A DNA stretch of 64,000 bases from an uncultured Lysobacteraceae bacterium (GCA_936911875.1 CAKZGB010000008.1:117359-181358); one strand, 5' to 3'; positions 8,761 to 42,959 are shown, numbered from the stretch's first letter. The notes: a model not told the origin generated them from the letters alone. A program made the numbers and translations.

Positions 8761-8786
8761 AAAAATGCCCTCGAAAGTGAGGGCAT
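8761..8786 (-). terminator. hairpin + U-tract (rho-independent terminator-like) ending the cI operon
   Basis: On the minus strand: ATGCCCTC-ACTTTC-GAGGGCAT followed by TTTT, running directly into the ATG at 8760. Confidence 0.5.
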
Positions 8787-8840
8787 CCGGCGCCAGCCGA
8801 GGGGGCGACTAGCGCCGGGTGCCCATCAGGCGGGTGCCTG

Positions 8841-8891
8841 ATGGGTTAATTAAACGTGGTGTTTATTCAAATGTCAACATGTTGTTTACTC
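8841..8891 (-). promoter_or_regulatory. PL-like promoter with CI operator palindrome
   Basis: On the minus strand: TTGACA (8877-8872), a 17-bp spacer, then TTTAAT. The spacer contains TAAAC-GTGGT-GTTTA (8851-8865), the same 15-mer as at PR, plus an extra GTTTACTC half-site at 8884-8891. Confidence 0.45.
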
Positions 8892-9650: not shown

Positions 9651-10343
9651 CTAGATCATTCGCTTGATCGACACGTTAACAAGTACACGACCACCGATGA
9701 TCATCTCTTCCGGCGCAGGAAAGTCAGGATAGGCCTTGTTTGTGCTGACAACGTAGAGCTGGTCTCTTGCTTGCAATATCTTGAACTGGGCGCCGTGACC
9801 TGTATTGATCAGGTATACCCCGTCACCATCAAAGTGGGTAATCGAAGTATCAACCCATGCGACTTCCCCGGACTCGAGCACGCCAGGAAGTGAATCCCCT
9901 CGACCCGTCATCAACTTCACGCGCCCCGGCGCCGGTAGGAATCCGACCTTCTTTCGTACTTCGTGCTCGCTGACTTCCAAGATGTTTACCACTTCTGGGA
10001 AGTCTTGATTAATAACTGGTCCACCCATGCCTGCCACCCCATCGATCTGTTCAAGTCGAACGTAGCCGTCTGGCGTTTCATTGCTTGAGACTGAATCCAG
10101 CAGCTCCGTGCCGATGCCTTCAAACACGTAAACCGGATTGATCCCTTTCACGGCAGCAAAGCGTAGAGACGCTTCGGCAGATACGCCGCGGCGCTTCCAA
10201 TTGTTTGCGCTTTGCGGCGTGGCATCGATCCAGGCTGCGATCTCCGTTTGATTTACATCGGGCTCAATCGCACGGGCCGCGTCCAGCAGCCGCTGAAAAC
10301 TTGGATGGGTAGTGTTTTCTTCCATGGGTTTAGTGTGAAACAT
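9651..10343 (-). CDS. cI: CI-like prophage repressor (HTH_XRE + S24 LexA-like peptidase)
   Basis: N-terminal HTH (QTEIAAWIDATPQSANNWKRRG). C-terminal S24 signature GDSL(PG) Ser and the downstream Lys (VSIKRM). Divergent from a cro-like gene. Confidence 0.8.
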   Translation of the reverse strand: MFHTKPMEENTTHPSFQRLLDAARAIEPDVNQTEIAAWIDATPQSANNWKRRGVSAEASLRFAAVKGINPVYVFEGIGTELLDSVSSNETPDGYVRLEQIDGVAGMGGPVINQDFPEVVNILEVSEHEVRKKVGFLPAPGRVKLMTGRGDSLPGVLESGEVAWVDTSITHFDGDGVYLINTGHGAQFKILQARDQLYVVSTNKAYPDFPAPEEMIIGGRVLVNVSIKRMI

Positions 10344-10406
10344 TCCGTTTACTCTTTGTTACACGCACTGTTGACTTTTATATAAACGTGGTGTTTACTT
10401 TCTTCC
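10344..10406. promoter_or_regulatory. OR/PR/PRM-like switch region between cI and cro
   Basis: TTGACT (10371-76), a 17-bp spacer containing TAAAC-GTGGT-GTTTA (10383-10397), then TTTACT (10394-99). The cro ATG follows 7 nt later, so the transcript is near-leaderless. An additional GTTTACTC half-site sits at 10347-54. Confidence 0.5.
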
Positions 10407-10640
10407 ATGAACGAATTAAACGAATCCATGGAGCGACATCCCGACGCCGAACTCATAGATCAACTGGGCGGATCAAAGACCGTCGCGGAACTATGTGGCT
10501 TCAACGGCGTCGACGGAATTCGCCGGGTCAGTAACTGGCGCCGCCGCGGGATCCCGGCAGCGATTCGATTGGCGCACTTGCATCTCTTTGGAACGACGGG
10601 GAATGCCTGTAAGTCAGAGCGTGAGGACGCAGCGGCATGA
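10407..10640 (+). CDS. cro: Cro/YdaS-like DNA-binding protein
   Basis: 77 aa divergent from cI. The VSNWRRRGIPAAIRLAHL motif is typical of YdaS/Cro-family HTH proteins. Confidence 0.6.
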   Translation: MNELNESMERHPDAELIDQLGGSKTVAELCGFNGVDGIRRVSNWRRRGIPAAIRLAHLHLFGTTGNACKSEREDAAA

Positions 10641-12807: not shown

Positions 12808-15192
12808 ATGACCCAGAACTACGTTGACGTCCTCGATCAGCTCCGCTCCGCCGGGCTGATCCTCGATAGCCTCGATACCTCGGGGCGCATGAAGCGTTGC
12901 AAGGTCGAAGGCGACCGCGAGCATCGCGGCTGGTATGTGCTGCACGAGATCCGCACCGATGACGGAACCGACCTGATCGTCGGGTCGTACGGGATATGGC
13001 GCGGGAACGATGCCGGCACTCAGAAGGTCAAGCTGACAAAGGCCGCCATTACTGCGGAACAGCGGGATGCGATCAGGCAACGCCAGCGGCAAGACCGCCA
13101 GCGTGCGGAACGCGAACGCCAGGAGACTGCAACTCGTGCTGCGGACCGGGCGCGTGAAGCATGGCTCAAGATGGTGGAGCAAGGCTCGAGCCAATATCTG
13201 GCACGAAAGGGCGTGTCGGGACACGGTGTGCGCTACTCGCCTACCACCGGCGCCCTGGTAATTCCGATGATCGATGTCGGCGGCCACATTCACGGCTTGC
13301 AGATCATCCGTGACAACCCGGCGCGTGATCAGCGTGAAAAAGAGTACTGGCCACGCGGCTTGTCCAAGCAAGGCCACTTCCACCTCATGGGCGGCGTGCC
13401 ATCAACAGTGCTGTTGCTGGCCGAAGGATATGCCACGGCGGCGAGTCTGTTTGAAGCCACCGGGTACCCGGTGGCAGTCGCGTTTGACGCCGGCAACCTG
13501 GTGCCCGTGGCCACGGCGCTGCACAAGAAATACCCGTACGCAAAGATTCTGATCTGCGCAGACGACGACCGATTCCAAAAGTGCCGCGGATGCAACTCGC
13601 CGGTCGACCTGGTGAGTGACCCCGCCGACTGTCCCACGTGCGGCAGCCAGCACAAAGCGACCAACGCAGGGGTCGGCGCCGCAAGCGCTGCTGCCCTGGC
13701 TGCTCATGGTGCGTGGTTGGCGCCACGGTTTGGCGACGAGGAGAAGGTGCGGCAGGACTTCATTGAGCGCGGCCGCAAGCTAACAGACTTCAATGATCTA
13801 CATGTACGCGAGGGCCTGCAGGCCGTCCGTGCTCGAGTGGAATCCCAACTCACGGAGCTCCAATGGAATGTTCCATCAAGCCACCACGCTACACCGACAA
13901 TTGAGGGGGGCGGGGTCCGAACTCTGACCCCTATTGATAGCCTTCCCGAGCTGCTTGAGCGCTATGCCGTGATCTACGGCGCCGGGGGCTATGCATTCGA
14001 CTTCCGCGACCGAATGATCGTCAAGCTCGGCGATGTTCGGGACGCATGCTTGAACAGCCAAACGTACAAGTGGTGGATGGAACGTCCCGACCGGCGCCTG
14101 GTCTACCAGAACCAAATTGGATTTGATCCTACCGATCGGGATCCGAACATCGTTTGCAACTTGTGGCACGGCTGGCCGACTGAGCCCAAAGCCGGTTACT
14201 GCGCGAATCTGCTGAACCTGCTGAGCTACTTGTGCAGCGCCGATGAAAATGCGGATGAGCTGGCCGACTGGTTGCTTAAGTGGATCGCATATCCGCTGCA
14301 GCATCCCGGCGCCAAGATGAAAACCACTGTGGTGATGCATGGCCCGCAAGGCACCGGCAAGAACTTGCTGTGGGAGAGCGTCATGGCGATCTACGGAGCG
14401 TACGGCAACGTGATCGGTCAGGACGCGCTCGAAGACAAATTCAATGACTGGGCATCGAAGAAACTCTTTATGGTCGCCGATGAAATCGTCGCGCGGCAGG
14501 ATCTGTACCACGTCAAGAACAAGCTCAAGACGCTGATCACCGGCGATCAGATCCGGATCAACCCGAAGGGCTCCATGAGCTACGTGGAACGAAACCACGT
14601 GAACTTCGTCTTCCTCTCGAATGAAACCGTGCCGACCGTGCTGGAAGAAGACGATCGGCGCCACTGTGTCATCTGGACGCCGCCGCGGCTCGAACCAAGT
14701 TATTACCAGGCAGTCCTGGACAACATCGCTAAGGACGGCGTCGCGCATTTGCACGACTATTTGCTCACGGTCGATCTCGAGGACTTCGGCCCGGGCACAC
14801 TTCCGCCAAAGTCGGAGGCGAAGGGCAAGCTAATCGATCAGTCGATGGATTCAACGGCTCGGTTCGGACATGCGTTCGTGGCCGGCGAGTTTGAGCGTCT
14901 ACGCCGGCGCCCGTGCCTGGCACAGGACATGTACAACCTCTACCGGTCGTATTGCCGGGCCCAAGGACTGCGTGAGATGCCGCAACCCCGGCTGCTGAAT
15001 GTGCTCGATCGGCGGTTCGGGTCGCGACCGGCACGCAAGCGGTGGCAGTCCGACTATGACGTGAAGCAATCGTCGGTGCTGATGTGGGACTTTAGCCCAC
15101 CGGAGGGATCCGACGAACGAACCTGGTTAGGGGCTGAAATCACGGCATTTCACAATGCGGTCAAGGACTACCTGGGGGGACAGAGTGGTTAA
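12808..15192 (+). CDS. P4-alpha/D5-type primase-helicase (TOPRIM + zinc ribbon + SF3 helicase)
   Basis: TOPRIM (LLLAEGYATAASLFEATGYPVAVAFDAGNL), zinc ribbon (CRGCNSP..CPTCGSQH) and Walker A (VVMHGPQGTGKNLL). 794 aa. Confidence 0.9.
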   Translation: MTQNYVDVLDQLRSAGLILDSLDTSGRMKRCKVEGDREHRGWYVLHEIRTDDGTDLIVGSYGIWRGNDAGTQKVKLTKAAITAEQRDAIRQRQRQDRQRAERERQETATRAADRAREAWLKMVEQGSSQYLARKGVSGHGVRYSPTTGALVIPMIDVGGHIHGLQIIRDNPARDQREKEYWPRGLSKQGHFHLMGGVPSTVLLLAEGYATAASLFEATGYPVAVAFDAGNLVPVATALHKKYPYAKILICADDDRFQKCRGCNSPVDLVSDPADCPTCGSQHKATNAGVGAASAAALAAHGAWLAPRFGDEEKVRQDFIERGRKLTDFNDLHVREGLQAVRARVESQLTELQWNVPSSHHATPTIEGGGVRTLTPIDSLPELLERYAVIYGAGGYAFDFRDRMIVKLGDVRDACLNSQTYKWWMERPDRRLVYQNQIGFDPTDRDPNIVCNLWHGWPTEPKAGYCANLLNLLSYLCSADENADELADWLLKWIAYPLQHPGAKMKTTVVMHGPQGTGKNLLWESVMAIYGAYGNVIGQDALEDKFNDWASKKLFMVADEIVARQDLYHVKNKLKTLITGDQIRINPKGSMSYVERNHVNFVFLSNETVPTVLEEDDRRHCVIWTPPRLEPSYYQAVLDNIAKDGVAHLHDYLLTVDLEDFGPGTLPPKSEAKGKLIDQSMDSTARFGHAFVAGEFERLRRRPCLAQDMYNLYRSYCRAQGLREMPQPRLLNVLDRRFGSRPARKRWQSDYDVKQSSVLMWDFSPPEGSDERTWLGAEITAFHNAVKDYLGGQSG

Positions 15193-15213
15193 TGTGTCAC
15201 CAAAATTCAGTGT

Positions 15214-15597
15214 TGTGCAGCATGGTGTGCGGCATCTGTGCGGCATGGTGTGCGGTATCTGTGCAGCATCTTGTGCGGCATGCTGTGCGGTATCTGTGCG
15301 GCATCTGTGCGGTATGGTGTGCGGTATCAAAACCGCTGCCGGTGCGGCTGTGCAGCATGTGCGGCATCCCGCGCACCTGTGCACACGTGCGCAGGCGCGT
15401 GCGTATACCCGCGCGTATGTGCGTGTGCCCGCGCGTACGCATGCCGCACATGGTGCACAGGCCCGTCACTGCGCGGTTTCATGCTGCACAGCATGCTGCA
15501 CAACGTGCTGCACACCGGCACCTGATGCTGCACAGATCCGCAGGGTCACGCGCGCGAACCCATTTTCTTTTTTGCTGAAAGAAAAAGTGGTGGTGGG
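15214..15597. repeat. iteron array / putative phage replication origin region
   Basis: About 12 tandem copies of TGTGCRGYAT(C/GG) at 11-12-bp spacing (15214-15370), then CCCGCGCGTA x2 and (A/C)TGCTGCACA x4, then an AT-rich tract. Non-coding 400 bp directly after the primase-helicase gene. Confidence 0.6.
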
Positions 15598-18530: not shown

Positions 18531-18561
18531 GCAAAAGCCTCGATCCTATGGTCGAGGCTTT
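18531..18561. terminator. bidirectional hairpin terminator
   Basis: AAAGCCTCGA-tcctatgg-TCGAGGCTTT, a perfect 10-bp stem. Overlaps the stop of the antisense DUF3800 gene and follows the Mor-like gene. Confidence 0.5.
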
Positions 18562-19433
18562 GGGCTATCTGGGCTCGGATAAATTTTGAGGCCCCATCCA
18601 TGGTAGCCCTTCCCAACGCGGGACCGTCCGCCTTCGCAATAAAATTTCTTCTTCAGAGCTTCGAAAGCTCGATTCTTGATGGATTGCTCCGGGTTGAAAA
18701 CCGCAAGCCCGATTGGACGCGCAACTAGGTCCGCTAATTGCAGCCCAGAAGAAAGTGCAGATTTCGTGATGATCTTAATGTCAAACATGTATCGAATGCG
18801 GTGTCGGTTCTGACCATCACAGATGCGTCGGAATTCTAACTCCAGACCGTGGTCCATATCTTTTCCTCTCCCTTCCACAACTACATAGGTCAGCTTGTTT
18901 TGCTCCGACTTCTCACATAGAAAGTCGTAGAGCGTTTCCATGCAATGTTGGAGCCCAATTCGATACGCATTTGTCGTCTCAGCGTCCCGTGCGTTTACGC
19001 GGCGCTTGTCAATGACGCAACTAATGAGGATGAAATTGCAGCGCTTAACAATTGCACCAAGGCTCGCCATGAAGGACTCGTGTTCATCTTTTGACTTAAA
19101 AAAGTTGAACGGTGGCTTGCGCTTGCGAATCTCGGACTCGTGCAGATTTACCTGATCATGCCCAAAGTACTTAAATTTAAATCGCTGCAATCGAGGGATC
19201 ACTTCCCGGCAGTAGTGCCCCTTGTGAAAAACGCAAAAAGCAAGGCAAAAAACCGGGTATCGATCCTCGTACTTTTTTAGAGGGTGGTGCCCAGACTCGT
19301 CAACGTAAACTACGTACTGCCCAAACTCGATGCCCTCAGCTCTAGAGACGTCCGATCTTTCGGTGCTCGCTAGCTGCCTGAGGGGCAACGATAGCTGGGT
19401 CTCTCGCCGCTGACGATTCTTCCGTCGCGTCAT
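18546..19433 (-). CDS. DUF3800-family protein (moron cargo)
   Basis: Both DUF3800 signature motifs are present: DES (YVDESGHHP) near the N-terminus and QxxD (LQLADLVA) near the C-terminus. AT-rich, antisense to all flanking structural genes, with its own flanking hairpins. Confidence 0.75.
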   Translation of the reverse strand: MTRRKNRQRRETQLSLPLRQLASTERSDVSRAEGIEFGQYVVYVDESGHHPLKKYEDRYPVFCLAFCVFHKGHYCREVIPRLQRFKFKYFGHDQVNLHESEIRKRKPPFNFFKSKDEHESFMASLGAIVKRCNFILISCVIDKRRVNARDAETTNAYRIGLQHCMETLYDFLCEKSEQNKLTYVVVEGRGKDMDHGLELEFRRICDGQNRHRIRYMFDIKIITKSALSSGLQLADLVARPIGLAVFNPEQSIKNRAFEALKKKFYCEGGRSRVGKGYHGWGLKIYPSPDSPKPRP

Positions 19434-19608: not shown

Positions 19609-19866
19609 ATGGTACTCACGATGAGTACTAATTCCGACCGCCTGCAGCTCTACCTGGACGCCGAACGCAAGATTTTGGCCGGCCAGACGGTGCGATTTGG
19701 TGACCGCCTGATCACGTACGCCGAGCTCGGCGATGTGCAGGCAGAGATCACCCGCCTGCAACGTGCGGTAGCCGAGGAGCAAGCCGGCAAGAATGCTGGC
19801 GCCCGCGGTCGGTTCTCCCAGGCGGACTTTGGCGGACGCCCTTGCGGCGACTGGAACACGCAATGA
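19609..19866 (+). CDS. head-tail joining protein W-like
   Basis: LQLYLDAERKILAGQTVRFGDRLITYAELGDVQAEITRLQRAV matches the lambda gpW family pattern. Positioned before the portal gene. Confidence 0.55.
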   Translation: MVLTMSTNSDRLQLYLDAERKILAGQTVRFGDRLITYAELGDVQAEITRLQRAVAEEQAGKNAGARGRFSQADFGGRPCGDWNTQ

Positions 19867-21398
19867 CCGGTTCCGCCGCCCTGGCCTCGAAGCGGTTGAT
19901 CCGCGCGATTGCCGCCGACCAATTACACGCCGAACAGTTCTCCAAAACTCCTGAAGCCCGTACCGGGGCTCCTTTGGCTCGAGCGCACGAGGCCGTGCGT
20001 CCGTCGCGCTCGCGCCGGCTTTTTGGAGATGAGGGTTCGGGCAACCGGATTGTCTCGAGCGATGCCAAGTCGCTGCGAGATCAGGCACGCGCCTTGGAGC
20101 GCGATTACGACGTCGCGGCCAACGCGCTCAACATCCTGGTCCAGAACACCGTTGGCTCGGGTATCGATGTCATGCCGGCCCCGCGGAAGGCGGGCGGCCA
20201 AGTAAACCGCGACCTCGCGCAGCAGCTGCGCGATCTGTGGGACGAATGGTGGGACCGGCCGGAAGTTACGGGCATCCATGATTTCGGCAAGTGCCAGCAG
20301 CTCATGGCTCGCTCGGCATTTCGCGATGGCGAGGCGTTCTTTCAGCACGTCCGCGGCATGATGAGCTCGCTCGATCATCTGACGATCGTGCCGTACTCGC
20401 TGGAGATGCTCGAGGCCGACCTGGTGCCGCTGCACGCCGACGATGCCTCCAGCAATCTTTCGCAAGGCGTCTACCGCAACGCGTGGGGCCGCATCACCGG
20501 TTACCAGGTCTACAAATCGCACCCCGGCGACATGATCGGGATCCGCGAAGAAACCAAATTTGTACCTGCTGACCGCCTGCAGAGCGTGGCCTGCATCAAC
20601 CGTATTGGCCAAGTCCGCGGCTTGTCGATCTTCGCTCCGGTGATGAACCGCTTCCGCGACATCCAGGACTACGAAAACTCTGAGCGCATCGCGGCCAAGG
20701 TGGCTGCGAGCTTCTGCGCACAGATCATCAAGGATACGAGCCTGCTACAGACCCCGAGCCTTGGCGGTCTGGATGCAGCCGTTGACCGGACCATTCGCAG
20801 CTTCAATATGGTCCCGGGCCTGATCGGCGATGAACTGTTGCCGGGCGAGCGGATCGAAGTGATCGACTCCAAGCGCCCGAATCCGAACATTGAAACCTAC
20901 CTCAACTCTCAGATGCGCCGTGCGGCCGGCGGGCTTGGAACCAGCTTCAGCTCGCTGTCGATGAACTACAACGGCACCTACTCGGCCCAGCGCCAGGAGC
21001 TTGTCGAGAAGTTTGGCTACTACGCCATGCTCGGCGAGTGGTTTGTGGCGAAATTCGTCCGGCCGGTCTGGGAGGAGTTCGTAATAGCTGCTGTGCAGCG
21101 CGGGCTCGTACGCATTCCGGCCGGCTGGACGATCCGCAACATACAAGCAGCACACTTCGTCCGGCCGGCCATGCCGTGGATCGACCCGCTCAAGGAAATC
21201 CTGGCGCGTCAGCAGGCTGTCGAAGCCGGTTGGCTGGCACCGCAGCAAGCGATCTTGCAATCCGGCAACGATCCCGAGGAGGTCCTACGTCTGCGCGAGG
21301 ACTGGAAGGCGCAAGCCGGCGACCCGCCCCCAACGCAACCCAACACCGAAGGCCGCGCCGCATTCGTCGCGCTGGCCAGTGGAGATCCCAATGCCTAA
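19863..21398 (+). CDS. portal protein (lambda gpB family)
   Basis: Size and N-terminal region typical of lambda-family portals. ATGA overlap with the W gene. Confidence 0.85.
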   Translation: MTGSAALASKRLIRAIAADQLHAEQFSKTPEARTGAPLARAHEAVRPSRSRRLFGDEGSGNRIVSSDAKSLRDQARALERDYDVAANALNILVQNTVGSGIDVMPAPRKAGGQVNRDLAQQLRDLWDEWWDRPEVTGIHDFGKCQQLMARSAFRDGEAFFQHVRGMMSSLDHLTIVPYSLEMLEADLVPLHADDASSNLSQGVYRNAWGRITGYQVYKSHPGDMIGIREETKFVPADRLQSVACINRIGQVRGLSIFAPVMNRFRDIQDYENSERIAAKVAASFCAQIIKDTSLLQTPSLGGLDAAVDRTIRSFNMVPGLIGDELLPGERIEVIDSKRPNPNIETYLNSQMRRAAGGLGTSFSSLSMNYNGTYSAQRQELVEKFGYYAMLGEWFVAKFVRPVWEEFVIAAVQRGLVRIPAGWTIRNIQAAHFVRPAMPWIDPLKEILARQQAVEAGWLAPQQAILQSGNDPEEVLRLREDWKAQAGDPPPTQPNTEGRAAFVALASGDPNA

Positions 21399-23598
21399 CC
21401 CCCTATCCCCCCCGACGCTTTCGTCCGCGCAGTACGCCACGCTGTCCAAGCTGCGCCCTCTCGCCCGCGCTGCGCACGCGGCGACCATGCCCCCGGTGTT
21501 GGCTCTGCAGCCCCGCGCCGAAGGCTCCCGCGAGGCGGAACTGTGGATCTATGGCCCGATCGGCGAAGACTGGTGGGATGACACGTCGCTCTCCGCAAAT
21601 GACGTCGTTTCGGCGCTCAAGGATATTCGCGTTGATGTGATCACCGTTCGGATCAACTCCTACGGTGGCTCGGTCTCGGACGGCATCGCCATCTACAACG
21701 AACTGCGCCGACACGCCGACAACTTCGGCACAAAGATCGTGGTGGAGCTGGGTTCTATTGCGGCCTCGATCGCTTCGCTGATCGCTGCCGCCGGCGACAT
21801 TGTGCGCATGCCTGCCAATGCACTGCAGATGCTCCACGCGCCCTGGGGCTATCTGTGGGTCGAAGGCAATGCAGTTGAAATGCTGAGCGCTGCCGAGGAC
21901 ATTGCCGCAGCGCTGACTGCATTCGGCAAAGCGATGGCCCCATCGTACGCCCGCAAGTCCGGCAAGCCGGCCAGCTACTACCAAGACATCTGGGACAGCG
22001 GCAAGGATCGGTGGCTGACTGCCGAGGAATGTCTTGCCGAGGGACTGATCGACGAGATCATCGGCACTGCACAGACCGATGACACGGAACTGCAAGCCGC
22101 ATTCCAACCGTTGTACGCCCGCCCGGGCGCCCCTGTGCAACAGATTCAAGCCGCACTTCGCGGCTCGCAACAACCCCCGGTGTTTGCACCGATCTCTACC
22201 CCGGCGGCGGGTGCTGCCGCACCTTCCCCCTCCACTCAAGGAACCACTGATATGCCGACCGCAACTCAGCCGGCCACCACGCCGGATTCGACCGTTGACG
22301 TTGCTGCACAAGCTGCTGCATCTGTCCGCGCCGCAATCGCCACCCGCAATGCGGAAATTCTTGCCATGACGGAACCGCACCGCGGCAACCCGGAAGTGAT
22401 GACGATCGTTAACGCCGCCCTGGCCAATCCCGATGATGCCGTCACTGCCCAATCGGTCGGCCACGAAGTGCTGCGTGCACTGGGCGGCCAAACGGAGCCG
22501 CTGGGCGGCTTCCAACGCGTCGAGGCTGGCGTCGACGCGCGTGATCGCCGCATTCAGGGCATGACCCTCGCGATCCAAGCTCGCGCCGGTGTCAGGGTTG
22601 ACGCGGCCGGCAACCAATTCCGCGGTTTGTCGCTGCGTGAAATGGCCCGTGCTTGCGCCGAGGCGGCCGGTGTCGATACCCGCGGCATGGCGCCGTCGCA
22701 GTTCATTCAAGCGGCGATTACCCACACTAGCTCCGACTTCCCGGCCATCGCCGGTAATACGGTGCGCAGCGCCGCGCTGCGTGGCTATGCCGACACGCCG
22801 GAGAATTTCAGCAGCTTCACTACGGCTGCCTCGGTTCCGGATTTCAAAGTGACATCGCTCGCCGGCCTGGGCACGTTTATCGGAATCACTGAGGTGCCCG
22901 AAGGTGCCGAGTACAACTATGGAACCTTCTCCTCGCAAGGTGCAGAAGTCCAAATCGTAAAGCGTGGCGGCATTTTCTCGATCACTGAAGAGGCCATCAT
23001 CAACGATGACCTTGGCTGGTTCGACAAGGTCCCGTATCGCATGGGCGCAGCGGCCAAGCGTTCGCTGGGTGACGAGGTCTTCGGCATCCTGACCAAGAAC
23101 GCCAACTTGGCCGATGGCCAACCGCTCTTCCACGCCTCGCACGGCAACCTAGCAACGGGTGCCGCGCTGCTGACCGCCTCGCTCGAGGCCATGTTTGCAT
23201 CGATGGCCACGATTACCGACAGCAATGGCAACCTGCTCCATCTGCAAGGCCGAGTGCTCGTCGTGCCGGTGGGTCTGGGTGCCACGGCTCGTGCGATTTT
23301 GGAATCGCAAGTCGAGATCATCGCCGGCAAGAACGCCACCGCACCGAACACGATGCGCGGCCGCTTTGCGGTTGTCGAAGATGCACGTCTCGACGTCGCC
23401 GATCCGAAAGCCTGGTACATCATCGCCGACCCGGCGCTGGTGGACACCATCATCGTCGCCTACCGCGACGGCGTTCAAGAACCGACTGTTACCACCAAGC
23501 AGGGCTGGAACGTTGAAGGCATCGAAGTGAAGGTCCGCCTGGATGCCAAGCCCGGCCTCGTCGATTACCGCGGCCTGCGCAAGAACCCGGGCGTCTAA
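21391..23598 (+). CDS. prohead protease (S49/ClpP family) - Ala/Pro-rich linker - major capsid protein fusion
   Basis: N-terminal ClpP/S49 protease domain (ELWIYGPIGEDWW...INSYGGSVSDGIAIYN). Low-complexity middle region. C-terminal ~330 aa with HK97-fold capsid character. GGAG SD before ATG 21391. Confidence 0.8.
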   Translation: MPNPLSPPTLSSAQYATLSKLRPLARAAHAATMPPVLALQPRAEGSREAELWIYGPIGEDWWDDTSLSANDVVSALKDIRVDVITVRINSYGGSVSDGIAIYNELRRHADNFGTKIVVELGSIAASIASLIAAAGDIVRMPANALQMLHAPWGYLWVEGNAVEMLSAAEDIAAALTAFGKAMAPSYARKSGKPASYYQDIWDSGKDRWLTAEECLAEGLIDEIIGTAQTDDTELQAAFQPLYARPGAPVQQIQAALRGSQQPPVFAPISTPAAGAAAPSPSTQGTTDMPTATQPATTPDSTVDVAAQAAASVRAAIATRNAEILAMTEPHRGNPEVMTIVNAALANPDDAVTAQSVGHEVLRALGGQTEPLGGFQRVEAGVDARDRRIQGMTLAIQARAGVRVDAAGNQFRGLSLREMARACAEAAGVDTRGMAPSQFIQAAITHTSSDFPAIAGNTVRSAALRGYADTPENFSSFTTAASVPDFKVTSLAGLGTFIGITEVPEGAEYNYGTFSSQGAEVQIVKRGGIFSITEEAIINDDLGWFDKVPYRMGAAAKRSLGDEVFGILTKNANLADGQPLFHASHGNLATGAALLTASLEAMFASMATITDSNGNLLHLQGRVLVVPVGLGATARAILESQVEIIAGKNATAPNTMRGRFAVVEDARLDVADPKAWYIIADPALVDTIIVAYRDGVQEPTVTTKQGWNVEGIEVKVRLDAKPGLVDYRGLRKNPGV

Positions 23599-37000: not shown

Positions 37001-39522
37001 TGTCCACTACGGCTTCAACATGGGTGAGTTCATACGGGGAACAGACGCGGGGCGTGATTGCGCGGGTTCCGTCAGGGACGGGGCAACTGTCCACCGAAGC
37101 CTACGCCCTGCAAACCGCACAGGCGCAGGTCTCGCCTGAAAGTGCCGTTGGGCAGTTCATGTCGACAACGGGTGCGCGTCTGCCCGATGGGAACGGCAAG
37201 ATTGCATCGGCATCGTCGGTTGATTCGGTGCGGTCAACGGTTGAGGTGCTGAAAAGCCCGAAATCCAACGGCATTTCCGATCCATATTTTCAAACGTCTG
37301 CGTGGACAAATTCATGGAATCACGGTTATCCCATTGACGGGTACTTTGGCCGCGCCTTACTCCTGCCCGCGTCCAGCGGTTTGAAGTGGTGGGCATACGA
37401 TGCGCCCGTGAGCGCGGGATGGGGTTACACGGCAAGCATCGACGCGTACAGGGACAACGGCTCGGGACAGGTCTTTATCAATGTCCGGTACCTTGACGCC
37501 GACAAGAATCATGTGGCATGGGGCGAGACATTCGGGCTAAGTGCGGTCGCGGAATGGAAGCGCATCTCGCATTACGAAATCGCACCGGCGGGCGCGGTAT
37601 GGAAGCGCATATTTTGCGAAACCGCAGAGACAACAGGCTCGGCCTACTTTGCAAATCCAGCCAACAAACAAGGGGTGGATGACAGCTTCAGCGATGACAC
37701 GCTGTTGCGTGCCACAACGGAACGGGTGCAGTCCATTTCCGTTGAGGTCGAGGACAGCAAAGCCCGCATCGGCAACGTGGAAACAGCCATTGCCGATGAA
37801 GCGGGTGCGCGTGCGCAGGCGATCAGTAACATCCAAGCGGATTACAACGGCAAACTCGATACAAAGGCATCCCATACGCAACTGTCCGAAGCCGTTGCGG
37901 GCGAAGCCAGTGCGCGTTCCATTGCCATTTCCGCATTGCAGGGGCAGGTGGCAGGAAAGGCGGACGCATCCATCGTCAATCAGGCCGTGATTGACATTGG
38001 TGTGCTGAAAAGCCCAACGGCAAATGGTGTCCAAGACCCGTACTTCCAAACGTCTGAATGGATTAATGCCACAAATCACGGGCAAATCGTTGAGGGATAT
38101 TATGGTCGAGCGTTATTGTTGCCAGCATCGGCAGGTCTGAAATGGTGGCATTACGATGTTCCCGTTAATGCGGGTTGGGGCTACACATTAAGCGGTGAAA
38201 TCTACCGCGACAACACGGCAGGTTCGGCATTTTTCAATGTCGAGTATCTGGACGCTAATAGGAATCACGTTGCATGGGGTGAATCCTTCGGAAATAACAC
38301 GGCGGCAAGATGGGCCCGAATCTCTCATTTTGAAGTGCCCCCCGCAGGTGCGGCTTACAAAAGAATCTACTGCGAGACGATTGATACAACGGGGACATCG
38401 TACTTCAACAAACTGGCGAACAAGCAGGGTTTGGACGATTCGTTTTCCGATGACTCCGCCGTAATGGCCAACCTCCAGCAACTCAACGCCCTGAACTTCG
38501 CAATGGGCGGCGTGAACGGTCAGGTCGCGCACTCGCAGTCCATCACGTACAAGCTCGGACAGTTGGAAACAAGTTGGGGCAACTTTGCCACGGCGGAATT
38601 GCCCGAACTCGCAACGAAGGCTCAAGCGCAGCAGTATGCGAGTGCCGTGGTCGCGCCCGATTCGGCAATGGCCACGTACATCAACAACCTGAACCTTGCG
38701 GTCGGCGGGGTGAATGGGGCGGCAGTAAGCAGCACTAGCTTAACGTACCGCGCAAATACGCTCGAAGCCACTAAGGTCGAATACCAGATCGTCGGCGGCA
38801 AGGTCAGCGGCTACCGTGTCGGCAACAACGGCGCGTATTCGACGTTCGAGATCATCGCCGATTCAATCGAAATGGTGACGGGCAGCAATACAGGTGTCGC
38901 CATCACCAAGAACAAAATGGACCGCGTTTTCGGCAATGCCGCGTTTTATGAGGGCGACCCGTTTGGCGCGGATAATCTAGTGTTCTGGATCGGCCCGAAG
39001 TCCATCGCAAAAGCGAGCGCTACAAAAGCCAACGGCACGTTCTGGATTAGCTCTTCGGGTGATCGTGGCGGCGGCGCGATGATCGGCTCGTTCAGCACGT
39101 CACGCGCAAGTGCTACGTCATCCACGCCAAATGGGACCGTTGAGGTCTCTACAGGCAGCTTCGAGCGCAGTTCGAGCAATGCGCAGATCACAGTGTCTGT
39201 CGGCATGTTTGCGTTCCGCACGTCATCGGGATCAGGCACCAACTCAACGGCGGCGCAATCTGTATCTGGCGTGATTGAGAAATCCGTTGACGGCGGCGCA
39301 TGGACTCAGGTGGGTGGATGGTCTGCGCGAGGAAGCTACAACGTCGAGTACGATTCAGGCATCAAGTCCGAGGTATCCGAAGTATCAGGCGGCGGCTATG
39401 CGGCGGACACAACGTCAGGCACGAATATCGCATATCGGGCGAGGCGAACGGGCGGCGGTGTCAATCTCGTCTCTAGTGTCGCAAACAACATGACAATCAG
39501 CATCACAGTGGAGCAAGTCTAA
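34042..39522 (+). CDS. host specificity protein J / central tail fibre
   Basis: 1826 aa, gpJ-like N-terminal two thirds. The C-terminal third contains a tandem duplicated ~150-aa domain and a distinct distal domain. Confidence 0.9.
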   Translation: MADGNQLTGAGGKKSTEASEAPDSLHSIATARIVDVISEGPIKGLVTGDARSVFYDRTPVRNADGSDNFENFILDIRHGTVDQAHVPGQPGVENEVALAGGSGVELKYNEPFTQAITNPDLSAVRVKIYVPQLQRADSANNRLDGDRVVIRYELSTDDSAFVAVYEEAIDGKTRNGYERSTTIYLPEATTGWMLRATRLTPDATNSTQVNKTYLRSYTELINVKLAMPNTAYVANTIGADQFSSIPTRIYHTDLLLVEIPSNYDPIARTYTGIWDGTFVQAWTDNPVWCTRDFIVNDRYGCGHLVSAELPNKWALYKLSMHCDELVPNGKGGQEPRYRFSAYFQQQADAWKVINDMLGSFRAMQFWMGGTINVVGDMADDLFDIYTPADVKDGKFNTSSTGRAARHTAAYVTYFDEDDFSTQKIAYVEDADAIARFGFNETSVINIGCPSYSQAIRFGRSIIASEQFETEMISFVVGLEGKLVPPGAIIGVMRPQLMGERMGGRVSAATLTSITVDHMPITAPVAGDILNIVTPAGEVEKATVATVSGRTITVEAAFSAVPLAESTWVLERTNLRMRQYRVLDIDESEDSLEWTITALLHEPAKYAYIDALEPIVPAPTYAPQVPARPTGLEMDVRVIVEHATSQTVLAFSWSTVFGVQNYDVEYQFGQGPWNRIDRLTGTATDVYSAVPGPVRFRVRATNASGVSSPWSDPYAGTVPENMTPGGALAEALVDIDAAVSDNVISRSEKLAETVRWNGAISALSSDQSKATAAGVAHTDYTAAYTALQAYIDGLDPALTDMAHDTPVVGSTYRTAWNLYLTQRTLLLNAIADKARTTSTWSGVSGTGKPQDNADVTATAPAFTAVNVRMPGGTDVLVTANAAAADATAKANAARDAAVLAAANAASTLYATQARAAALQAQINDVVGTADDWVDDRDYPKGDSVRNNGILYRAKQPVPAGTPTSDTAYWENIGNYSSVGEAVAAAVDMSTTASTWVSSYGEQTRGVIARVPSGTGQLSTEAYALQTAQAQVSPESAVGQFMSTTGARLPDGNGKIASASSVDSVRSTVEVLKSPKSNGISDPYFQTSAWTNSWNHGYPIDGYFGRALLLPASSGLKWWAYDAPVSAGWGYTASIDAYRDNGSGQVFINVRYLDADKNHVAWGETFGLSAVAEWKRISHYEIAPAGAVWKRIFCETAETTGSAYFANPANKQGVDDSFSDDTLLRATTERVQSISVEVEDSKARIGNVETAIADEAGARAQAISNIQADYNGKLDTKASHTQLSEAVAGEASARSIAISALQGQVAGKADASIVNQAVIDIGVLKSPTANGVQDPYFQTSEWINATNHGQIVEGYYGRALLLPASAGLKWWHYDVPVNAGWGYTLSGEIYRDNTAGSAFFNVEYLDANRNHVAWGESFGNNTAARWARISHFEVPPAGAAYKRIYCETIDTTGTSYFNKLANKQGLDDSFSDDSAVMANLQQLNALNFAMGGVNGQVAHSQSITYKLGQLETSWGNFATAELPELATKAQAQQYASAVVAPDSAMATYINNLNLAVGGVNGAAVSSTSLTYRANTLEATKVEYQIVGGKVSGYRVGNNGAYSTFEIIADSIEMVTGSNTGVAITKNKMDRVFGNAAFYEGDPFGADNLVFWIGPKSIAKASATKANGTFWISSSGDRGGGAMIGSFSTSRASATSSTPNGTVEVSTGSFERSSSNAQITVSVGMFAFRTSSGSGTNSTAAQSVSGVIEKSVDGGAWTQVGGWSARGSYNVEYDSGIKSEVSEVSGGGYAADTTSGTNIAYRARRTGGGVNLVSSVANNMTISITVEQV

Positions 39523-39800
39523 TGAGCTACAAATCCATCGCGCTGATGGCGCAAGATCAAGACCTTCGCGCACGAATCCGCGCAGCAATCGCAATGGAGG
39601 GCAACTCGACCGCCAACTGGCAGCTAGAGGAGACCTACTGGAAAATGGCCGCCGCTTCGGATTGGGACGATGCCTATGACTATGCGCAGGCAACGAATGT
39701 GGAAAGGCCGGGATGGAACGAATCCGTCATCACTGACCAGATGATCCTGTCGCGCCTGCAAGCCCTGTATCCGCCGTATGTGGCACCGGGAATGCCCTAA
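39522..39800 (+). CDS. hypothetical protein (92 aa)
   Basis: ATGA overlap with the J stop. Acidic, Trp-rich. Confidence 0.35.
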   Translation: MSYKSIALMAQDQDLRARIRAAIAMEGNSTANWQLEETYWKMAAASDWDDAYDYAQATNVERPGWNESVITDQMILSRLQALYPPYVAPGMP

Positions 39801-40166
39801 GCAGGTACGGCCATAGCAGCACACTCAGTCTGCCATACCCACACGACAGGGGAGCGCGATTGCATCAAACTCCCCTCATGGACATTCAAACAATCAAAGC
39901 ACTGCTCGCCACGCTGCGGCAGGCCCTGTACCAATACGACGATCACCTAGCGGCGACCGTACTCCATATCGAGACTCTGCTGGATCAGTTGGAGCCGTAA
40001 CCCCTCGGCTGGCGGGGTCATCCGCCTCAGATCAGCCCGCGAAACTCGATCAGACACTCAAAATAAGGGTAAGGGCGGGTTTCACGGGTGATTTTCGGGC
40101 GGGAATTGAATCTTTGACCGTGTCAGAATATTCTTGATATCGTGTCGATAAACAAGGGGATTCTGG

Positions 40167-41033
40167 GTGCTGGATCAAAAATCAGTCGATGACCTAATCG
40201 ATGCGGATTCAGATCGCGATTTTATAGTTATTAGCGATCGCATTTCCCGCGAACTCCACTATCGACTTAGCAGAGCATTAGAGAAACAATCCTCAAATAG
40301 TCGCTGCACCGTTTTCCTCACAACGTGGGGAGGTGATCCGGATGGAGGCTATCGAATAGCGCGCTGCCTGCGCCACTACTACAAGGATGGCATTCGTCTG
40401 GTAATCCCTAGCTGGTGTAAAAGTGCCGGCACTCTCATCGCTATGGGTGCTGACGAGTTGGCCATAGGAGATCTCGGAGAGTTAGGTCCCGTAGATATTC
40501 AGGTTCTAAAGGGCTCGGAACTGGAGGAGCGTAGTAGCGGTCTTGATATTCAAGAGGCTGTCGCGGTAATCGAGAAAGAAGCAAAGGACATGTTCGTCGC
40601 CGCGTTACATGAGATTAAAGGTATGGGTCTTTCTACCAAACTTTCCGGCGAATTTGCTGCCCAAGTTACTGCTGCGCTAGTCGCACCGATCGCTTCACAG
40701 ATCGACCCGATCCGTCTCGGAGAAATGAACCGCGCTACAAGGATCGCGCATGAATATGGTGCGCGACTCAGCGGTAGATCGGGTAACCTTAAGCCTGGGG
40801 CGATTGCATATCTGATCACAAAATACCCAACTCACAGTTTTGTGATTGATCGCCTTGAAGCCAAAATACTGTTCAATCGAGTCAGCAACATGAACAGCCC
40901 CGAGACGGTTTTCTGTGACAAGAATTGGGGTATCATTGGCGAGCCAAATGATACAGTGCTTGTATTGACGCGGTCTCAGCCCAACATCGCCGCGGTTCCG
41001 ACGCAAGCAGTATCCACTACGACGAGCGCATGA
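40167..41033 (+). CDS. ClpP/SppA-fold (S49/SDH-like) serine protease
   Basis: GTG start after AAGGGGA. TTWGGDPDGG...IPSWCKSAGTLIAMGADELAIGDLGELGPVD resembles the ClpP/SppA Ser region. Low GC. Confidence 0.55.
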   Translation: MLDQKSVDDLIDADSDRDFIVISDRISRELHYRLSRALEKQSSNSRCTVFLTTWGGDPDGGYRIARCLRHYYKDGIRLVIPSWCKSAGTLIAMGADELAIGDLGELGPVDIQVLKGSELEERSSGLDIQEAVAVIEKEAKDMFVAALHEIKGMGLSTKLSGEFAAQVTAALVAPIASQIDPIRLGEMNRATRIAHEYGARLSGRSGNLKPGAIAYLITKYPTHSFVIDRLEAKILFNRVSNMNSPETVFCDKNWGIIGEPNDTVLVLTRSQPNIAAVPTQAVSTTTSA

Positions 41034-41227
41034 CCATGAAAAAAAATAAAAGACTGACGGTCATTGAGTGTAAGAATGTGACCCCTGAACAGTGCCAGGA
41101 TCAACCGTCTTCCTTGGCACAGTTTTCTGGATCGTCTGAAGATAGCTACATTCGAACTGCATTTGAAATGACTGAGCGTATGGAGAATGAATCGGAATTG
41201 ATTGCGGAACAACTTTTATTCCGCTGA
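41030..41227 (+). CDS. small acidic protein (65 aa), translationally coupled to the protease
   Basis: ATGA overlap with the protease stop. A hairpin terminator follows at 41322-41341 (GGCCGGGC agaa GCCCGGCC + T-tract). Confidence 0.4.
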   Translation: MTMKKNKRLTVIECKNVTPEQCQDQPSSLAQFSGSSEDSYIRTAFEMTERMENESELIAEQLLFR

Positions 41228-41699
41228 TCGGTTATTCCGCCGGCTTGGCCTTGGTCAGCGCGTGGTCGTTACAGACTGTCATGACTGGGGATTTTCAATC
41301 CCCTGCGCTACCAACGAGAACGGCCGGGCAGAAGCCCGGCCGTTCCGTTTGGTTTTGCTTAGCAGCGGACCAAGAACCGCCATGCCTCATATCCGTAATC
41401 GTGCGCGTCGAGGACGCGATCCGAATTACGAACACGGCGGTACCGGCAATAAATCCACCGGAATCCGCGCGGCGCAGGGTCATGAATCATCATGACAGTG
41501 CTCCTCGGAGCCAACCAAAGCTGAACAGCTCTGGGTGTGGCCTTACTCAAACTCCCGAACCCTCTGAAAGAGTTACCAATGGCACTTGTGCCGCGGGCCT
41601 CCAGGTCCTATAGTTCGGGTTGCTATCGAAGCAAGGACTCGACGCTGGCTCCTACCACGTCGAATTCATCAAAGCACCACTTTCGCGAGTGGTGCTTTT

Positions 41700-42269
41700 T
41701 TATTTCAATGCGCGCATTAACTCGGCCCTCTTCTTGTTGAAGTTCGTGTGGTAATAGTTTGCAGCTTCGTAGCTCATTCCGTACTGCTCGCTGATTGTGA
41801 TCGCGCAATCTACAACAAGCGCCCGCTCGATCGGGGCAAGTAAGCCCGCAGCGAATGTATTGGCTTGCCACTCAGGATCCTGATACCGCGGAACTGACTC
41901 TGCCGGCATTGCGAGACGGTGGTACCCCTCCCTGCAGTGCATTGCCAAGTGGCCAAACTCGTGCGCTACAGTGAATCTCGATCGACCATCAGAACGTTCA
42001 GCGCCTTCGTACGTCGAGCGACTTAACACAATTCCACTCCCATCAGGCCGCGTAAAGCCTAACGATCCCGCCATCTCATAGTCTTCATACACTTCGAGAT
42101 TAAACACTCTGCCGTCGGGTGAAATTCTGTGTTCGAGCACATCAATCAAATCAATTTGCTGATTGTCCTCGACGTAAGCTCGACGAATGCTCTGCGCCAA
42201 CAAGTAGATTTGCACCGTACTCAACGGCGGAACTACATAATTCGCATTTCCTAAAGCGAAATTGCTCAT
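41700..42269 (-). CDS. ImmA/IrrE-family zinc metallopeptidase (DUF955/COG2856-like)
   Basis: HEXXH motif VAHEFGHLAMH. Directly downstream of an XRE HTH gene. Confidence 0.7.
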   Translation of the reverse strand: MSNFALGNANYVVPPLSTVQIYLLAQSIRRAYVEDNQQIDLIDVLEHRISPDGRVFNLEVYEDYEMAGSLGFTRPDGSGIVLSRSTYEGAERSDGRSRFTVAHEFGHLAMHCREGYHRLAMPAESVPRYQDPEWQANTFAAGLLAPIERALVVDCAITISEQYGMSYEAANYYHTNFNKKRAELMRALK

Positions 42270-42271
42270 TA

Positions 42272-42637
42272 CTACTCCTTTGGCGTTGTTAGTTGATTCA
42301 AAAGTGCGGAAATGTCTGCAGACTCAAGCTGCTCGTATCGGCGTGCAAAGGCAACTGCCAGCTCGCGTGCGCGAGCGTCCGGATTAGTTCGAACAGAAAT
42401 TGAAACCTCTTTTACGGTTTCAATTGCAAGTCGATCGAGCTCTGCCGCTGTAGCATGATCAAGTTGCAGTTGTTCGGTCAACCGCGAGACAAAGTCCGGC
42501 GGCACTGGCTTGCGGCCTGTTTCCAATGCTGAGATGTACGCCACGCTGAGTCCGAGCTTCTTTGCCAGCTCCCCGAGCGTCATCCGATCACGTTCGAAGC
42601 GAACCCTTTTTAGGGCGCTACCAAACTTGTTCAACAT
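42272..42637 (-). CDS. XRE-family HTH transcriptional regulator
   Basis: HTH MTLGELAKKLGLSVAYISALETGRK. Forms an operon with the ImmA-like peptidase. Confidence 0.7.
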   Translation of the reverse strand: MLNKFGSALKRVRFERDRMTLGELAKKLGLSVAYISALETGRKPVPPDFVSRLTEQLQLDHATAAELDRLAIETVKEVSISVRTNPDARARELAVAFARRYEQLESADISALLNQLTTPKE

Positions 42638-42881
42638 GCGTATTCCTCCGTAGGGGATTGATTCAGCCTGCCCCCGTTTCGCCAGGCTGCCAACCGGCTC
42701 AAATGCCGATTTGAACCAATCCTACACCCAATGGGAGAACATTTCAACCAACGGGAAGAAAAGACGAAAACTGGCGTCGAAATTTATCCCGACTTTTATC
42801 CAGCCCGATATTTCTGAACGAAATCGCAAGCCAACAAAAAAGCCTTTCCCAATGATATCAATCACTTAGAAAAGGCTTGAT

Positions 42882-42959
<78 letters not shown>

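Follow-up and report, generated by a model that had tools for sequence, protein, structure and literature searches.

A ClpP-fold protease gene and an ImmR/ImmA-type cassette with an overlooked third gene at the attR end of a Lysobacteraceae prophage

Background

The ImmR/ImmA pair of the Bacillus element ICEBs1 and of phage phi105 consists of an XRE-family helix-turn-helix (HTH) gene followed, in the same operon, by a gene for a short HEXXH peptidase of approximately 170-190 amino acids (aa). CapH/CapP and the IrrE/DdrO pair of Deinococcus follow a shared logic, in which an HTH repressor and an M78 peptidase lie beside accessory cargo. CapP and IrrE are about 290 aa long and have an HTH in the centre and a GAF domain at the C terminus, the two together forming a groove that senses single-stranded DNA; not all CapP proteins have the cysteine switch. 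HTH and ImmA-type functions are also found with a highly variable third component, as in the RosmerTA toxin-antitoxin (TA) systems, where the antitoxin RmrA, a fusion of an HTH and an ImmA domain, has toxins of great diversity as its partners and the order of the genes varies. Three-component TA systems of the Xre-COG2856 type, abundant in prophages, were predicted by Makarova et al. (2009), and some modules of the Rosmer-like kind are proven anti-phage defences. Here we describe a locus with partial likeness to these systems, found in a 64,000-nucleotide (nt) stretch of DNA from an uncultured Lysobacteraceae bacterium (GCA_936911875.1, CAKZGB010000008.1:117359-181358), hereafter called the window. 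At the right, attR end of a prophage in this window, a cassette of XRE and ImmA-type genes lies tail to tail with a gene for an SDH-family protease of the ClpP fold.

We read this locus as two separate accessory units, each widespread in prophages, that have come to lie side by side. This interpretation, with the roles proposed below for each unit, is held tentatively, at a little under even confidence. The ClpP-fold family is already annotated, and both the ImmR/ImmA type of cassette and the prophage-end cargo region are familiar. What appears to be undescribed is the presence of SDH proteases as passengers in cI operons, their recurrent pairing with XRE-ImmA cassettes, and a hidden gene for a 44-aa protein in these cassettes. 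An earlier, sequence-only reading of the window had proposed that the island was a protease-based defence module under a damage-responsive switch. The open reading frames (ORFs) that it placed in the island, the ATGA overlap of two of them, and both hairpins (now 41318-41345 and 41671-41698) are present; several of its functional proposals fared less well, as described in the sections concerned. The coordinates of all the features are collected in Table 1.

The XRE-ImmA cassette

The assignment of an XRE-HTH regulator and an ImmA/IrrE-type peptidase to the minus strand of the island is borne out by matches to HTH_31/HTH_3 and to Peptidase_M78, respectively. Residues H103, E104, H107 and E133 of the peptidase are invariant, and the HTH-M78 adjacency is accompanied by the third, Glu ligand. 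The XRE protein has a C-terminal helical extension and is presumed to be both an autorepressor and the substrate of the peptidase. The layout is that of ImmR/ImmA: between att repeats lies a gene for an HTH protein of 121 aa and, 2 nt downstream of it, one for a peptidase of 189 aa. The window cassette and ImmR/ImmA also have in common their location in an integrated mobile element, near its end, and a presumed stress-triggered cleavage of the repressor. They differ in that the cassette has an extra gene, for the 44-aa protein, and that the window prophage has a separate CI-type S24 repressor. The latter belongs to a CI-S24/cro-like pair spanning 9651-10640, in which a cro-sized ORF is divergent from CI, and it is therefore unlikely that the cassette is the master switch of the prophage.

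The likeness to both ImmR/ImmA and CapH/CapP that was first proposed holds for the HTH/M78 pair, but it does not extend to the GAF sensor domain of CapP, which is absent here. CapP (7t5t) is the closest and the only solved relative of the window peptidase (E 2.6e-12). The alignment covers residues 81-179 of the 291-aa CapP; since the window peptidase has neither the central HTH nor the GAF domain, its architecture is ImmA-like and not that of CapP. Its cysteine C111 lies 4 residues after H107 and is not conserved among cassette homologs, whereas the switch cysteine of CapP lies about 13 residues after the second His and is followed by acidic residues. The gene order differs too: CapH and CapP are divergent and upstream of the operon that they control, whereas the window pair is convergent with the protease gene and shares no operator with it. 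Among PADLOC models, capP and capH match the cassette peptidase and the HTH protein, and RmrA models match both proteins, each by its own domain.

A promoter-like site precedes xre, and just downstream of it there is a perfect palindrome, TCAAATGCCGATTTGA. Such a pattern is expected 0.09 times per window, and we regard this one as a candidate autoregulatory operator for XRE. At the other end of the cassette, a strong predicted terminator (41318-41345) follows the 44-aa gene, as do equivalent terminators in two related loci, L060 and L026, so that the predicted minus-strand operon is xre-immA-(hairpin)-44-aa gene and extends to this point. The 41318-41345 hairpin is probably a bidirectional terminator shared by the protease operon and the cassette operon. 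Thus, of the two convergent operons with their own terminators that were originally proposed, the convergence stands, but the minus-strand operon passes through the 41671-41698 hairpin and shares the other one.

The hairpin within the operon, directly after the ImmA stop codon, is kept in position in nearly all cassette loci (in L060 at 1483-1509). The strand antisense to the cassette has the stronger T-run, and on it the hairpin scores as a terminator. The hairpin might act as an attenuator or as a terminator in both directions, or it might mark where a cis-antisense RNA like those of type I TA systems ends; no antisense promoter was found. A covariation-supported RNA structure was sought in the spacer between ImmA and the 44-aa gene, but the alignment was too heterogeneous, and it is the positional conservation alone that we report.

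An overlooked gene for a 44-aa protein

The third gene of the cassette was missed by the sequence-only reading, by the source annotation, and by the initial ORF filter. Comparison of its copies marks it as a real coding gene. Among 240 loci, it was found 125-200 nt downstream of ImmA in 32 unrelated ones. Its differences are concentrated in the third codon position (65/46/197 at the first, second and third positions), and synonymous changes outnumber non-synonymous ones (136 vs 73). The encoded proteins are 64-89% identical, with the exception of two divergent copies at 43-47%, whereas ImmA itself is far less conserved, at 30-40% identity. The window gene has a Shine-Dalgarno (SD) sequence, GAGGAG, 7 nt upstream of its start, and a near-perfect SD, TAAGGAGGTG, follows the hairpin at cassette loci.

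The 44-aa protein is basic and rich in arginine and aromatic residues, and it is not hydrophobic. It matches phrog_33859, a family of unknown function (4e-18); searches of Pfam and of PADLOC, the RmrT models included, gave no match. AlphaFold predicts a small beta-sheet fold with confidence (predicted local distance difference test score, pLDDT, 89.5), for which no significant match was present in the PDB. Eight proteins in a database of 5.8 billion resemble it, compared with the 32 occurrences in our 240 loci, which indicates that the gene is systematically under-annotated. To our knowledge, an extra gene of this kind has so far not been described for ImmR/ImmA. It gives XRE-ImmA cassettes, which are very common in prophages, a third and strongly conserved component that gene callers almost always miss, and descriptions of these cassettes as two-gene units may therefore be incomplete.

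Two homologs occur in a different setting. In loci L244 and L245, both at 5001-5147, a homolog of the 44-aa protein is encoded behind a 105-aa gene that lacks a Pfam match, with no annotated XRE/ImmA pair. The neighbours are a MmeI-type restriction-modification gene in L244 and ParD-like and transposase genes in L245, so the 44-aa protein can be preceded by different partners when it occurs in a defence-island or mobile setting.

Two other explanations of the spacer were considered and rejected. One was a non-coding RNA in the 41345-41670 interval; Rfam matches were at noise level (RNAI, E 0.12; SorY, E 0.09), and the spacer encodes the 44-aa protein. The other was that the host-like GC content of the spacer marks two separately acquired cassettes. 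The GC content is accounted for by the conserved, Arg-rich coding sequence of the 44-aa protein and is not evidence of a separate origin.

A three-gene cassette raises the question of whether it is a TA module. XRE and ImmA might be viewed as a split RmrA, with the basic 44-aa protein, or else the protease, as the toxin of a Rosmer-like or three-component system that stabilises the prophage or aborts infection. The matches of RmrA models to both the peptidase and the HTH protein are consistent with this, as are the prediction of Xre-COG2856 modules by Makarova et al. and the diversity of RosmerTA toxins. The 44-aa gene is linked to the cassette, is extremely conserved and has its near-perfect SD, and ImmA cassettes elsewhere are occasionally found beside SLATT_5 or PBECR3 effectors. 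However, RmrA is a single fused protein, whereas the two domains are encoded by separate genes in the window, and the RmrT models match none of the protease, the 65-aa ORF described below and the 44-aa protein, or any other ORF; RmrT toxins are themselves so diverse that this lack of matches carries little weight. In addition, the 44-aa protein lacks hydrophobic character and has a fold without known counterpart, and many cassettes lie beside integrases, where control of excision is an equally plausible role. We consider a TA function unlikely.

The SDH-family protease

The plus-strand unit begins with the gene for a 288-aa protein that had been read as a serine protease of the ClpP/SppA fold, and the profile and structure searches agree with this. 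The protein matches Pfam SDH_protease (PF01972) at 5.6e-7, as well as NfeD1b_N, and the top Foldseek matches of its AlphaFold (AF2) model (pLDDT 85) are ClpP, SppA and the archaeal stomatin protease 1510-N. Its SDH_protease score of 29.3 bits is just under the curated cut-off of 31.3, and with the NCBIfam model NF047768 ('SDH family Clp fold serine proteinase') it scores 35.1 against a cut-off of 250; both curated models are built on distant, largely archaeal-type members. Despite this sub-cut-off score, we place the protein in the SDH family because its homologs themselves carry PF01972. The database search gave 430 homologs, hundreds of them at 50-63% identity and with E values down to 1e-98; most of the close ones carry PF01972, and NCBI gives several the name 'SDH family Clp fold serine proteinase'. 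The nearest non-self homologs, 55-63% identical, are mostly from Xanthomonadales and Burkholderiales. There is also a strong match (4e-73) to phrog_21683, an uncharacterised phage family.

In an alignment of 25 sequences, about 265 residues form a conserved core, within which S86 (in the motif 'CKSAGT'), H223 (in 'YPxHxFVIDR'), D110, D127, D180 and D228 are invariant. In a profile search S86, which is intact in the window protein, aligns with the catalytic serine of ClpP, and the conserved His and Asp residues suggest a Ser-His-Asp triad, not the Ser-Lys dyad of SppA. No signal peptide or membrane segment is present. Sequence and model together describe a cytoplasmic serine protease of the ClpP fold that is soluble and probably active and whose family is uncharacterised.

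The fold and the position of the nucleophilic serine are shared with ClpP, SppA, the 1510-N/NfeD stomatin protease and the S49/ClpP prohead proteases, all of which are self-compartmentalising peptidases. Identity to the ClpP/SppA-type relatives is, however, 11-17%, and the window protease has a large helical insertion at residues ~125-205. Unlike its ClpP-type relatives, it has no membrane anchor and no ATPase partner, and its gene is outside the head module. Head-protease models match it weakly (phrog_1684, 1e-5; NF045542, 2e-4), and it is located at the att end of the prophage, not between the portal and capsid genes. Since the phage has a ClpP prohead protease of its own, fused to the capsid protein (Table 1), the window protease is not morphogenetic, as the sequence-only reading had argued. 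That reading had also recognised no named defence system in the gene combination, and indeed no PADLOC model matches the window protease or any member of its family.

The C-terminal tail of the window protease is short (24 aa). Most homologs are 310-365 aa long owing to tails that are acidic, disordered and rich in Gly, Pro, Glu and Asp. Tail length in the family ranges from 6 to 105 aa with a median of 67; tails no longer than 30 aa occur in 17 of 230 members. A motif, 'G-[LV]-R-[VI]-R', followed by basic residues is present in 39/230 tails, and a few end in an amphipathic 'LLxL'. Such tails might be autoinhibitory or substrate-recruiting appendages.

Upstream of the protease gene there is a promoter-like site that overlaps two palindromes, AGAATATTCT (40125-40134) and TATCGTGTCGATA (40138-40150). 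Promoter-like sites are no commoner in this region than expected by chance, and this one is suggestive by its position alone.

Genomic habitat of the protease family

The surroundings of the protease were analyzed in 80 loci from reference genomes, 80 viral contigs from IMG/VR and two sequenced phages. These loci were collapsed to 114 lineages at 85% identity, and neighbouring genes within 2.5 kb were clustered without bias. The two largest families of neighbours both consisted of HTH + Peptidase_S24 repressors. Such a repressor gene, present in 22/114 lineages, in every case lies immediately upstream of the protease gene on the same strand, with a median gap of 95 nt, and is often accompanied by a divergent cro-sized gene and then by Rha/ANT antirepressor and replication genes. 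Lambdoid immunity regions are laid out in this way, and the protease takes the position that rexAB has in lambda. Integrase families were the next commonest neighbours; a tyrosine recombinase was found within 8 kb of the protease in 14/80 genome loci, a proportion similar to the 20/80 of genuine viral contigs.

The family has at least 93 matches in IMG/VR and is patchily distributed over Proteobacteria, Chlorobi, Acidobacteria, Cyanobacteria and Verrucomicrobia. This patchy taxonomy, together with the lysogeny-module and integrase neighbours, shows the protease to be a mobile accessory gene of lysogeny modules, neither a housekeeping gene nor a morphogenetic one. Two findings that would have spoken against the cargo proposal in the sequence-only reading were thus not made: the homologs are patchy accessory genes in phages and prophages and near integrases, not chromosomal housekeeping genes, and they occur in lysogeny modules, not in head modules as scaffold or prohead proteases. 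The lysogeny-module habit is common in the family, though not universal.

Several phages carry passenger genes in the cI operon, among them rexAB of lambda, stk of 933W and nun of HK022. The SDH protease occupies the same slot as rexAB, downstream of and co-oriented with CI, in the 22 lineages mentioned, and this position implies expression in the lysogen. The protease has no sequence or fold relation to these passengers, and in the window it is at the prophage end opposite to cI.

In one member (L136) of the large enterobacterial cluster, the protease gene is split into ORFs of 173 aa (7899-8420) and 182 aa (8442-8990). This is an apparent pseudogene, and the gene is accordingly dispensable in at least some lysogens.

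The vicinity of repressors might also be explained if the protease were not a defence gene but an accessory of repressor-cleavage switches, degrading the DNA-binding fragment that remains when a CI-type repressor cleaves itself or ImmA cleaves an XRE repressor, and so sharpening induction. In the host, fragments of LexA and of lambda CI are degraded by ClpXP, and the protease has the ClpP fold; a single idea would then cover its adjacency to both S24-type repressors (22 lineages) and XRE-ImmA repressors (8 lineages, see below). On the other hand, most members of the family have no adjacent repressor, and the window protease is 30 kb from its own CI. It has no adaptor or ATPase, and co-transcription with cI would produce the protease just when the repressor has to remain stable. 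A fragment-clearing role is in our opinion very improbable.

Association of the protease with XRE-ImmA cassettes

All 17 ImmA-like genes found in the protease-seeded loci have an XRE partner and are within 1.2 kb of the protease. In addition to the window, 8 independent lineages are represented among them, and all four relative orientations. If genes were placed uniformly within the loci, the joint probability of this protease-ImmA adjacency would be about 1e-6. The convergent layout of the window, including the 44-aa gene, recurs in a Saccharospirillum metagenome-assembled genome (L036). Collinear arrays in the order xre-immA-44-aa gene-protease are found in L026 and L060, and in Klebsiella phage ST13-OXA48phi12.4 and its relatives the XRE-ImmA pair and the protease are divergent. 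The protease-linked ImmA proteins are 19-31% identical to the window ImmA, compared with up to 42% for unlinked ones. The linked proteins are thus no closer to the window ImmA than unlinked ones are, and the cassette has therefore been recruited repeatedly.

The predicted signals describe the two units as transcriptionally separate. In the collinear loci L026 and L060 a terminator and a new promoter-like site lie between the 44-aa gene and the protease. An operator shared among the protease, XRE and prophage cI/cro regions was also looked for, and no candidate above chance was found. Control of the protease by a damage-responsive switch, as envisaged in the sequence-only reading, does not agree with a convergent arrangement, the lack of a shared operator, and the separation of the units in collinear relatives as well; that the neighbouring XRE protein controls transcription of the protease is unsupported in the window.

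Their adjacency is nevertheless more frequent than chance would predict, and a functional or selective link between the two units is therefore likely. Coincidence has to be weighed against this: two unrelated morons might have entered the same att-proximal hotspot, the protease serving in peptide turnover or lysogenic conversion. The cassette is indeed generic and usually has other neighbours; in viral loci these are mostly integrases and lysis genes near the ends of prophages. The two belong to separate transcription units without a shared operator, and both favour prophage ends and lysogeny modules, which by itself would raise their co-occurrence. However, in 8 independent lineages, and in every orientation, they lie 1.2 kb or less apart, much closer than would be expected from a shared 16-kb neighbourhood, and in the Klebsiella phage the two are adjacent in the middle of the genome. 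Coincidence seems to us quite unlikely.

The 65-aa ORF behind the protease

The stop codon of the protease gene overlaps the start of a 65-aa ORF, which had been proposed as the translationally coupled partner of the protease. This proposal did not survive comparison with other genomes. A HMMER search of 1.84 billion representative proteins with the 65-aa sequence found nothing but the sequence itself, and a search of PADLOC gave nothing but HEC-02B at E 0.011. Nor do pairs of a protease and a small protein recur in the way that was envisaged: coupled small ORFs flank about 20% of the protease homologs, and these ORFs are mostly basic, mutually unrelated and chance-like. A conserved small partner across the family was accordingly rejected. 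The 65-aa ORF, which was also predicted by an independent gene caller, may be a young, lineage-specific gene or may be non-coding; it is not a conserved component of the family.

The possibility that the ORF is a detached tail of the protease, split off by a frameshift, was likewise rejected, as BLAST found no similarity to any family tail. It is further weakened by the natural variation of the tails (6-105 aa, with short ones in 17/230 members) and by the restriction of the '[LVIM]R[VILA]R' tail motif to 39/230 members. Codons 4-6 of the ORF contain a run of eight A residues (41039-41046), which could be a site of slippage or phase variation or a hotspot for sequencing errors. Slippage here cannot restore the protease frame, because the protease stop is upstream of the run.

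These results bear on the most integrated view of the island, a four-gene system in which a toxic protease is held in check by the 65-aa protein and is switched on when ImmA cleaves XRE after DNA damage, in the manner of CapH/CapP in CBASS, the anti-phage signalling system based on cyclic oligonucleotides. Its attractions are the ATGA overlap, which suggests translational coupling, the independent call of the 65-aa ORF, the recurrence of XRE-ImmA beside the protease, the matches to the capP and capH models, and the classical, divergent CapH/CapP layout in ST13-OXA48phi12.4 and its relatives. Yet the 65-aa ORF has no relatives and coupled small ORFs are not conserved; the layout in the window is convergent and lacks a shared operator; the cassette has a conserved, presumed output gene and a terminator of its own, and the protease its own promoter-like site even in collinear loci; and most members of the protease family have no such regulator. 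We judge the four-gene system to be improbable.

Proposed roles of the two units

In the interpretation that we favour, the plus-strand unit would consist of a self-promoted gene for a soluble SDH protease followed by a lineage-specific orphan ORF. We infer that the protease is made in the lysogen. It would most likely benefit the lysogen by cleaving a protein of a superinfecting phage or of the host, leading to exclusion or abortive infection. The minus-strand unit would be an ImmR/ImmA-type switch, in which XRE represses its own promoter via the 42699-42714 palindrome until the short M78 peptidase cleaves it in response to a stress signal. The output of the switch would be the ultra-conserved 44-aa protein, encoded after the positionally conserved hairpin. 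The recurrent pairing of the units would then reflect cooperation or shared selection, not a shared operator.

Several observations weigh against these proposals. Adjacency to cI is circumstantial evidence for a defence role, and about 75% of the protease family has, within 2.5 kb, no repressor and no XRE-ImmA pair. Among the 80 closest ImmA-seeded loci from viral contigs, one carries the protease. The protease and XRE promoter regions of the window share no motif beyond chance, and their palindromes differ. In the protease, neither a domain for choosing substrates nor a sensor domain is recognisable, and it has no ATPase partner; this leaves no obvious means of holding it inactive until it is triggered. 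Finally, the protease is absent from PADLOC, and the literature offered no support: we found no functional study of SDH-family proteases, or of S49/ClpP-like proteases in defence, the family names being mentioned incidentally.

A bolder version would join the two units. SDH proteases would be a widespread and hitherto unrecognised class of single-gene, ATPase-independent effectors of prophage immunity expressed from the repressor operon, and the output of XRE-ImmA would be the phrog_33859 protein, whose target would be a conserved one in the host; on a signal of damage or infection the 44-aa protein would be released, and it in turn would trigger or direct the protease. We offer this as a speculative and rather unlikely extension.

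The island is a reasonable candidate for phage exclusion, but not a demonstrated new defence system. As a lead for experiments it is well founded but weaker than in the sequence-only reading, since neither a coupled partner nor a damage-responsive control of the protease stands up; the conserved 44-aa protein adds to its value. If SDH proteases do protect lysogens, a ClpP-fold protease without partners would join the known defence effectors, and a function would be assigned to hundreds of annotated but unstudied genes that are kept beside a phage repressor.

Prophage setting and borders of the island

The window prophage is ~37 kb long and is flanked by direct repeats, 46-48 nt in length, of the tRNA-Pro(ggg) 3' end. 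One copy of the repeat lies at the right border of the prophage, where the island abuts attR, and an integrase gene lies at the left end of the prophage. The placement of the island in a prophage-end cargo region between gene J and att, as given in the sequence-only reading, is thus supported by the att repeats, the tRNA gene and the integrase. The low GC content that was noted is confirmed as well (~0.51 across 40-43 kb, vs 0.60-0.63 in the phage body), but at 200-nt resolution the low-GC stretch begins near 40000 and not directly after J, which places the island at ~40000-42880.

Two small ORFs lie between J and the protease. The 92-aa ORF, which had been suggested as an island gene, is probably a member of the tail module instead, since its GC content is phage-like and its start overlaps the J stop. 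It has no match in Pfam, PHROG or PADLOC and is carried by its own genome only; it is thus an orphan. The 46-aa ORF has no Pfam, PADLOC or PHROG match and no homolog in 160 related loci, and is likewise an orphan. A search of sequenced phages for relatives of the island at the DNA level gave none.

Table 1. Features of the window and copies of the 44-aa gene in other loci
Feature	Coordinates	Strand	Remarks
att repeat, left copy	~5657-5704		
Integrase gene	5793-7007		Left prophage end
CI-type HTH/S24 repressor gene	9651-10343		CI of the prophage itself
Portal gene	19842-21398		
739-aa ORF	21379-23598	+	ClpP-type prohead protease (CLP_protease, residues 86-229) fused to capsid (Phage_capsid_4, residues 421-736)
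J-like tail-fibre gene, 1826 aa	ends 39522		FNIII-A_GpJ match
92-aa ORF	39522-39800	+	Start overlaps J stop (TAATG); GC ~0.57, phage-like
46-aa ORF	39860-40000	+	TTG start; 40 aa if ATG at 39878 is used
Promoter-like site, TTGACC-18-TATCGT with TG	40114-40143	+	Ahead of the protease gene
SDH-family ClpP-fold serine protease gene, 288 aa	40167-41033	+	Assigned from Pfam, phrog_21683, homologs and fold
65-aa ORF	41030-41227	+	ATGA overlap with protease stop; alternative ATG at 41036 gives 63 aa
GC-rich hairpin, 12 bp	41318-41345		Strong predicted terminator for protease (+); 14 nt past 44-aa gene stop
44-aa protein gene, MMIHDPAPRGFRWIYCRYRRVRNSDRVLDAHDYGYEAWRFLVRC	41362-41493 (41359-41493 including stop)	-	Third cassette gene
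Hairpin	41671-41698		Directly after ImmA stop; A-run, 11-bp stem, T-run
ImmA-type Zn-metallopeptidase gene, 189 aa	41700-42269	-	Peptidase_M78; HEFGH 103-107, E133
XRE-family HTH protein gene, 121 aa	42272-42637	-	HTH_31/HTH_3; capH model 8.9e-9
Perfect palindrome, TCAAATGCCGATTTGA	42699-42714	-	Just downstream of xre promoter-like site
Promoter-like site, TTGAAA-17-TAGGAT	42747-42719	-	Upstream of xre
attR core	42879-42926	-	Inside tRNA-Pro(ggg); right prophage border
tRNA-Pro(ggg)	42882-42958	-	
44-aa gene copy, L163	6678-6806		
44-aa gene copy, L166	6682-6810		
44-aa gene copy, L060	1627-1758		
44-aa gene copy, L026	7471-7590		
44-aa gene copy, L036	9318-9196		
44-aa gene copies, 27 further loci			

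Other parts of the prophage have features of possible interest. A 244-aa ORF (8886-9620, minus strand) fills the slot just downstream of the prophage CI, in a low-GC patch (0.51). It has no match in Pfam or PADLOC and is a candidate for a lysogen-expressed moron; its position is that of the SDH protease in other phages, but it is unrelated to the protease. Just ahead of the portal gene, on the opposite strand, a second low-GC patch (18-20 kb, GC 0.53-0.54) contains a gene for a 295-aa DUF3800 protein (18546-19433, minus strand), which has no PADLOC match and is likely to be cargo. Directly 3' to a 794-aa primase/helicase-type gene (12808-15192) there are six overlapping copies of a repeat (15203-15348), with TGTGCGGCATC-like units of 11-12 nt at a spacing of 11-23 nt, which resemble the iterons of replication origins.

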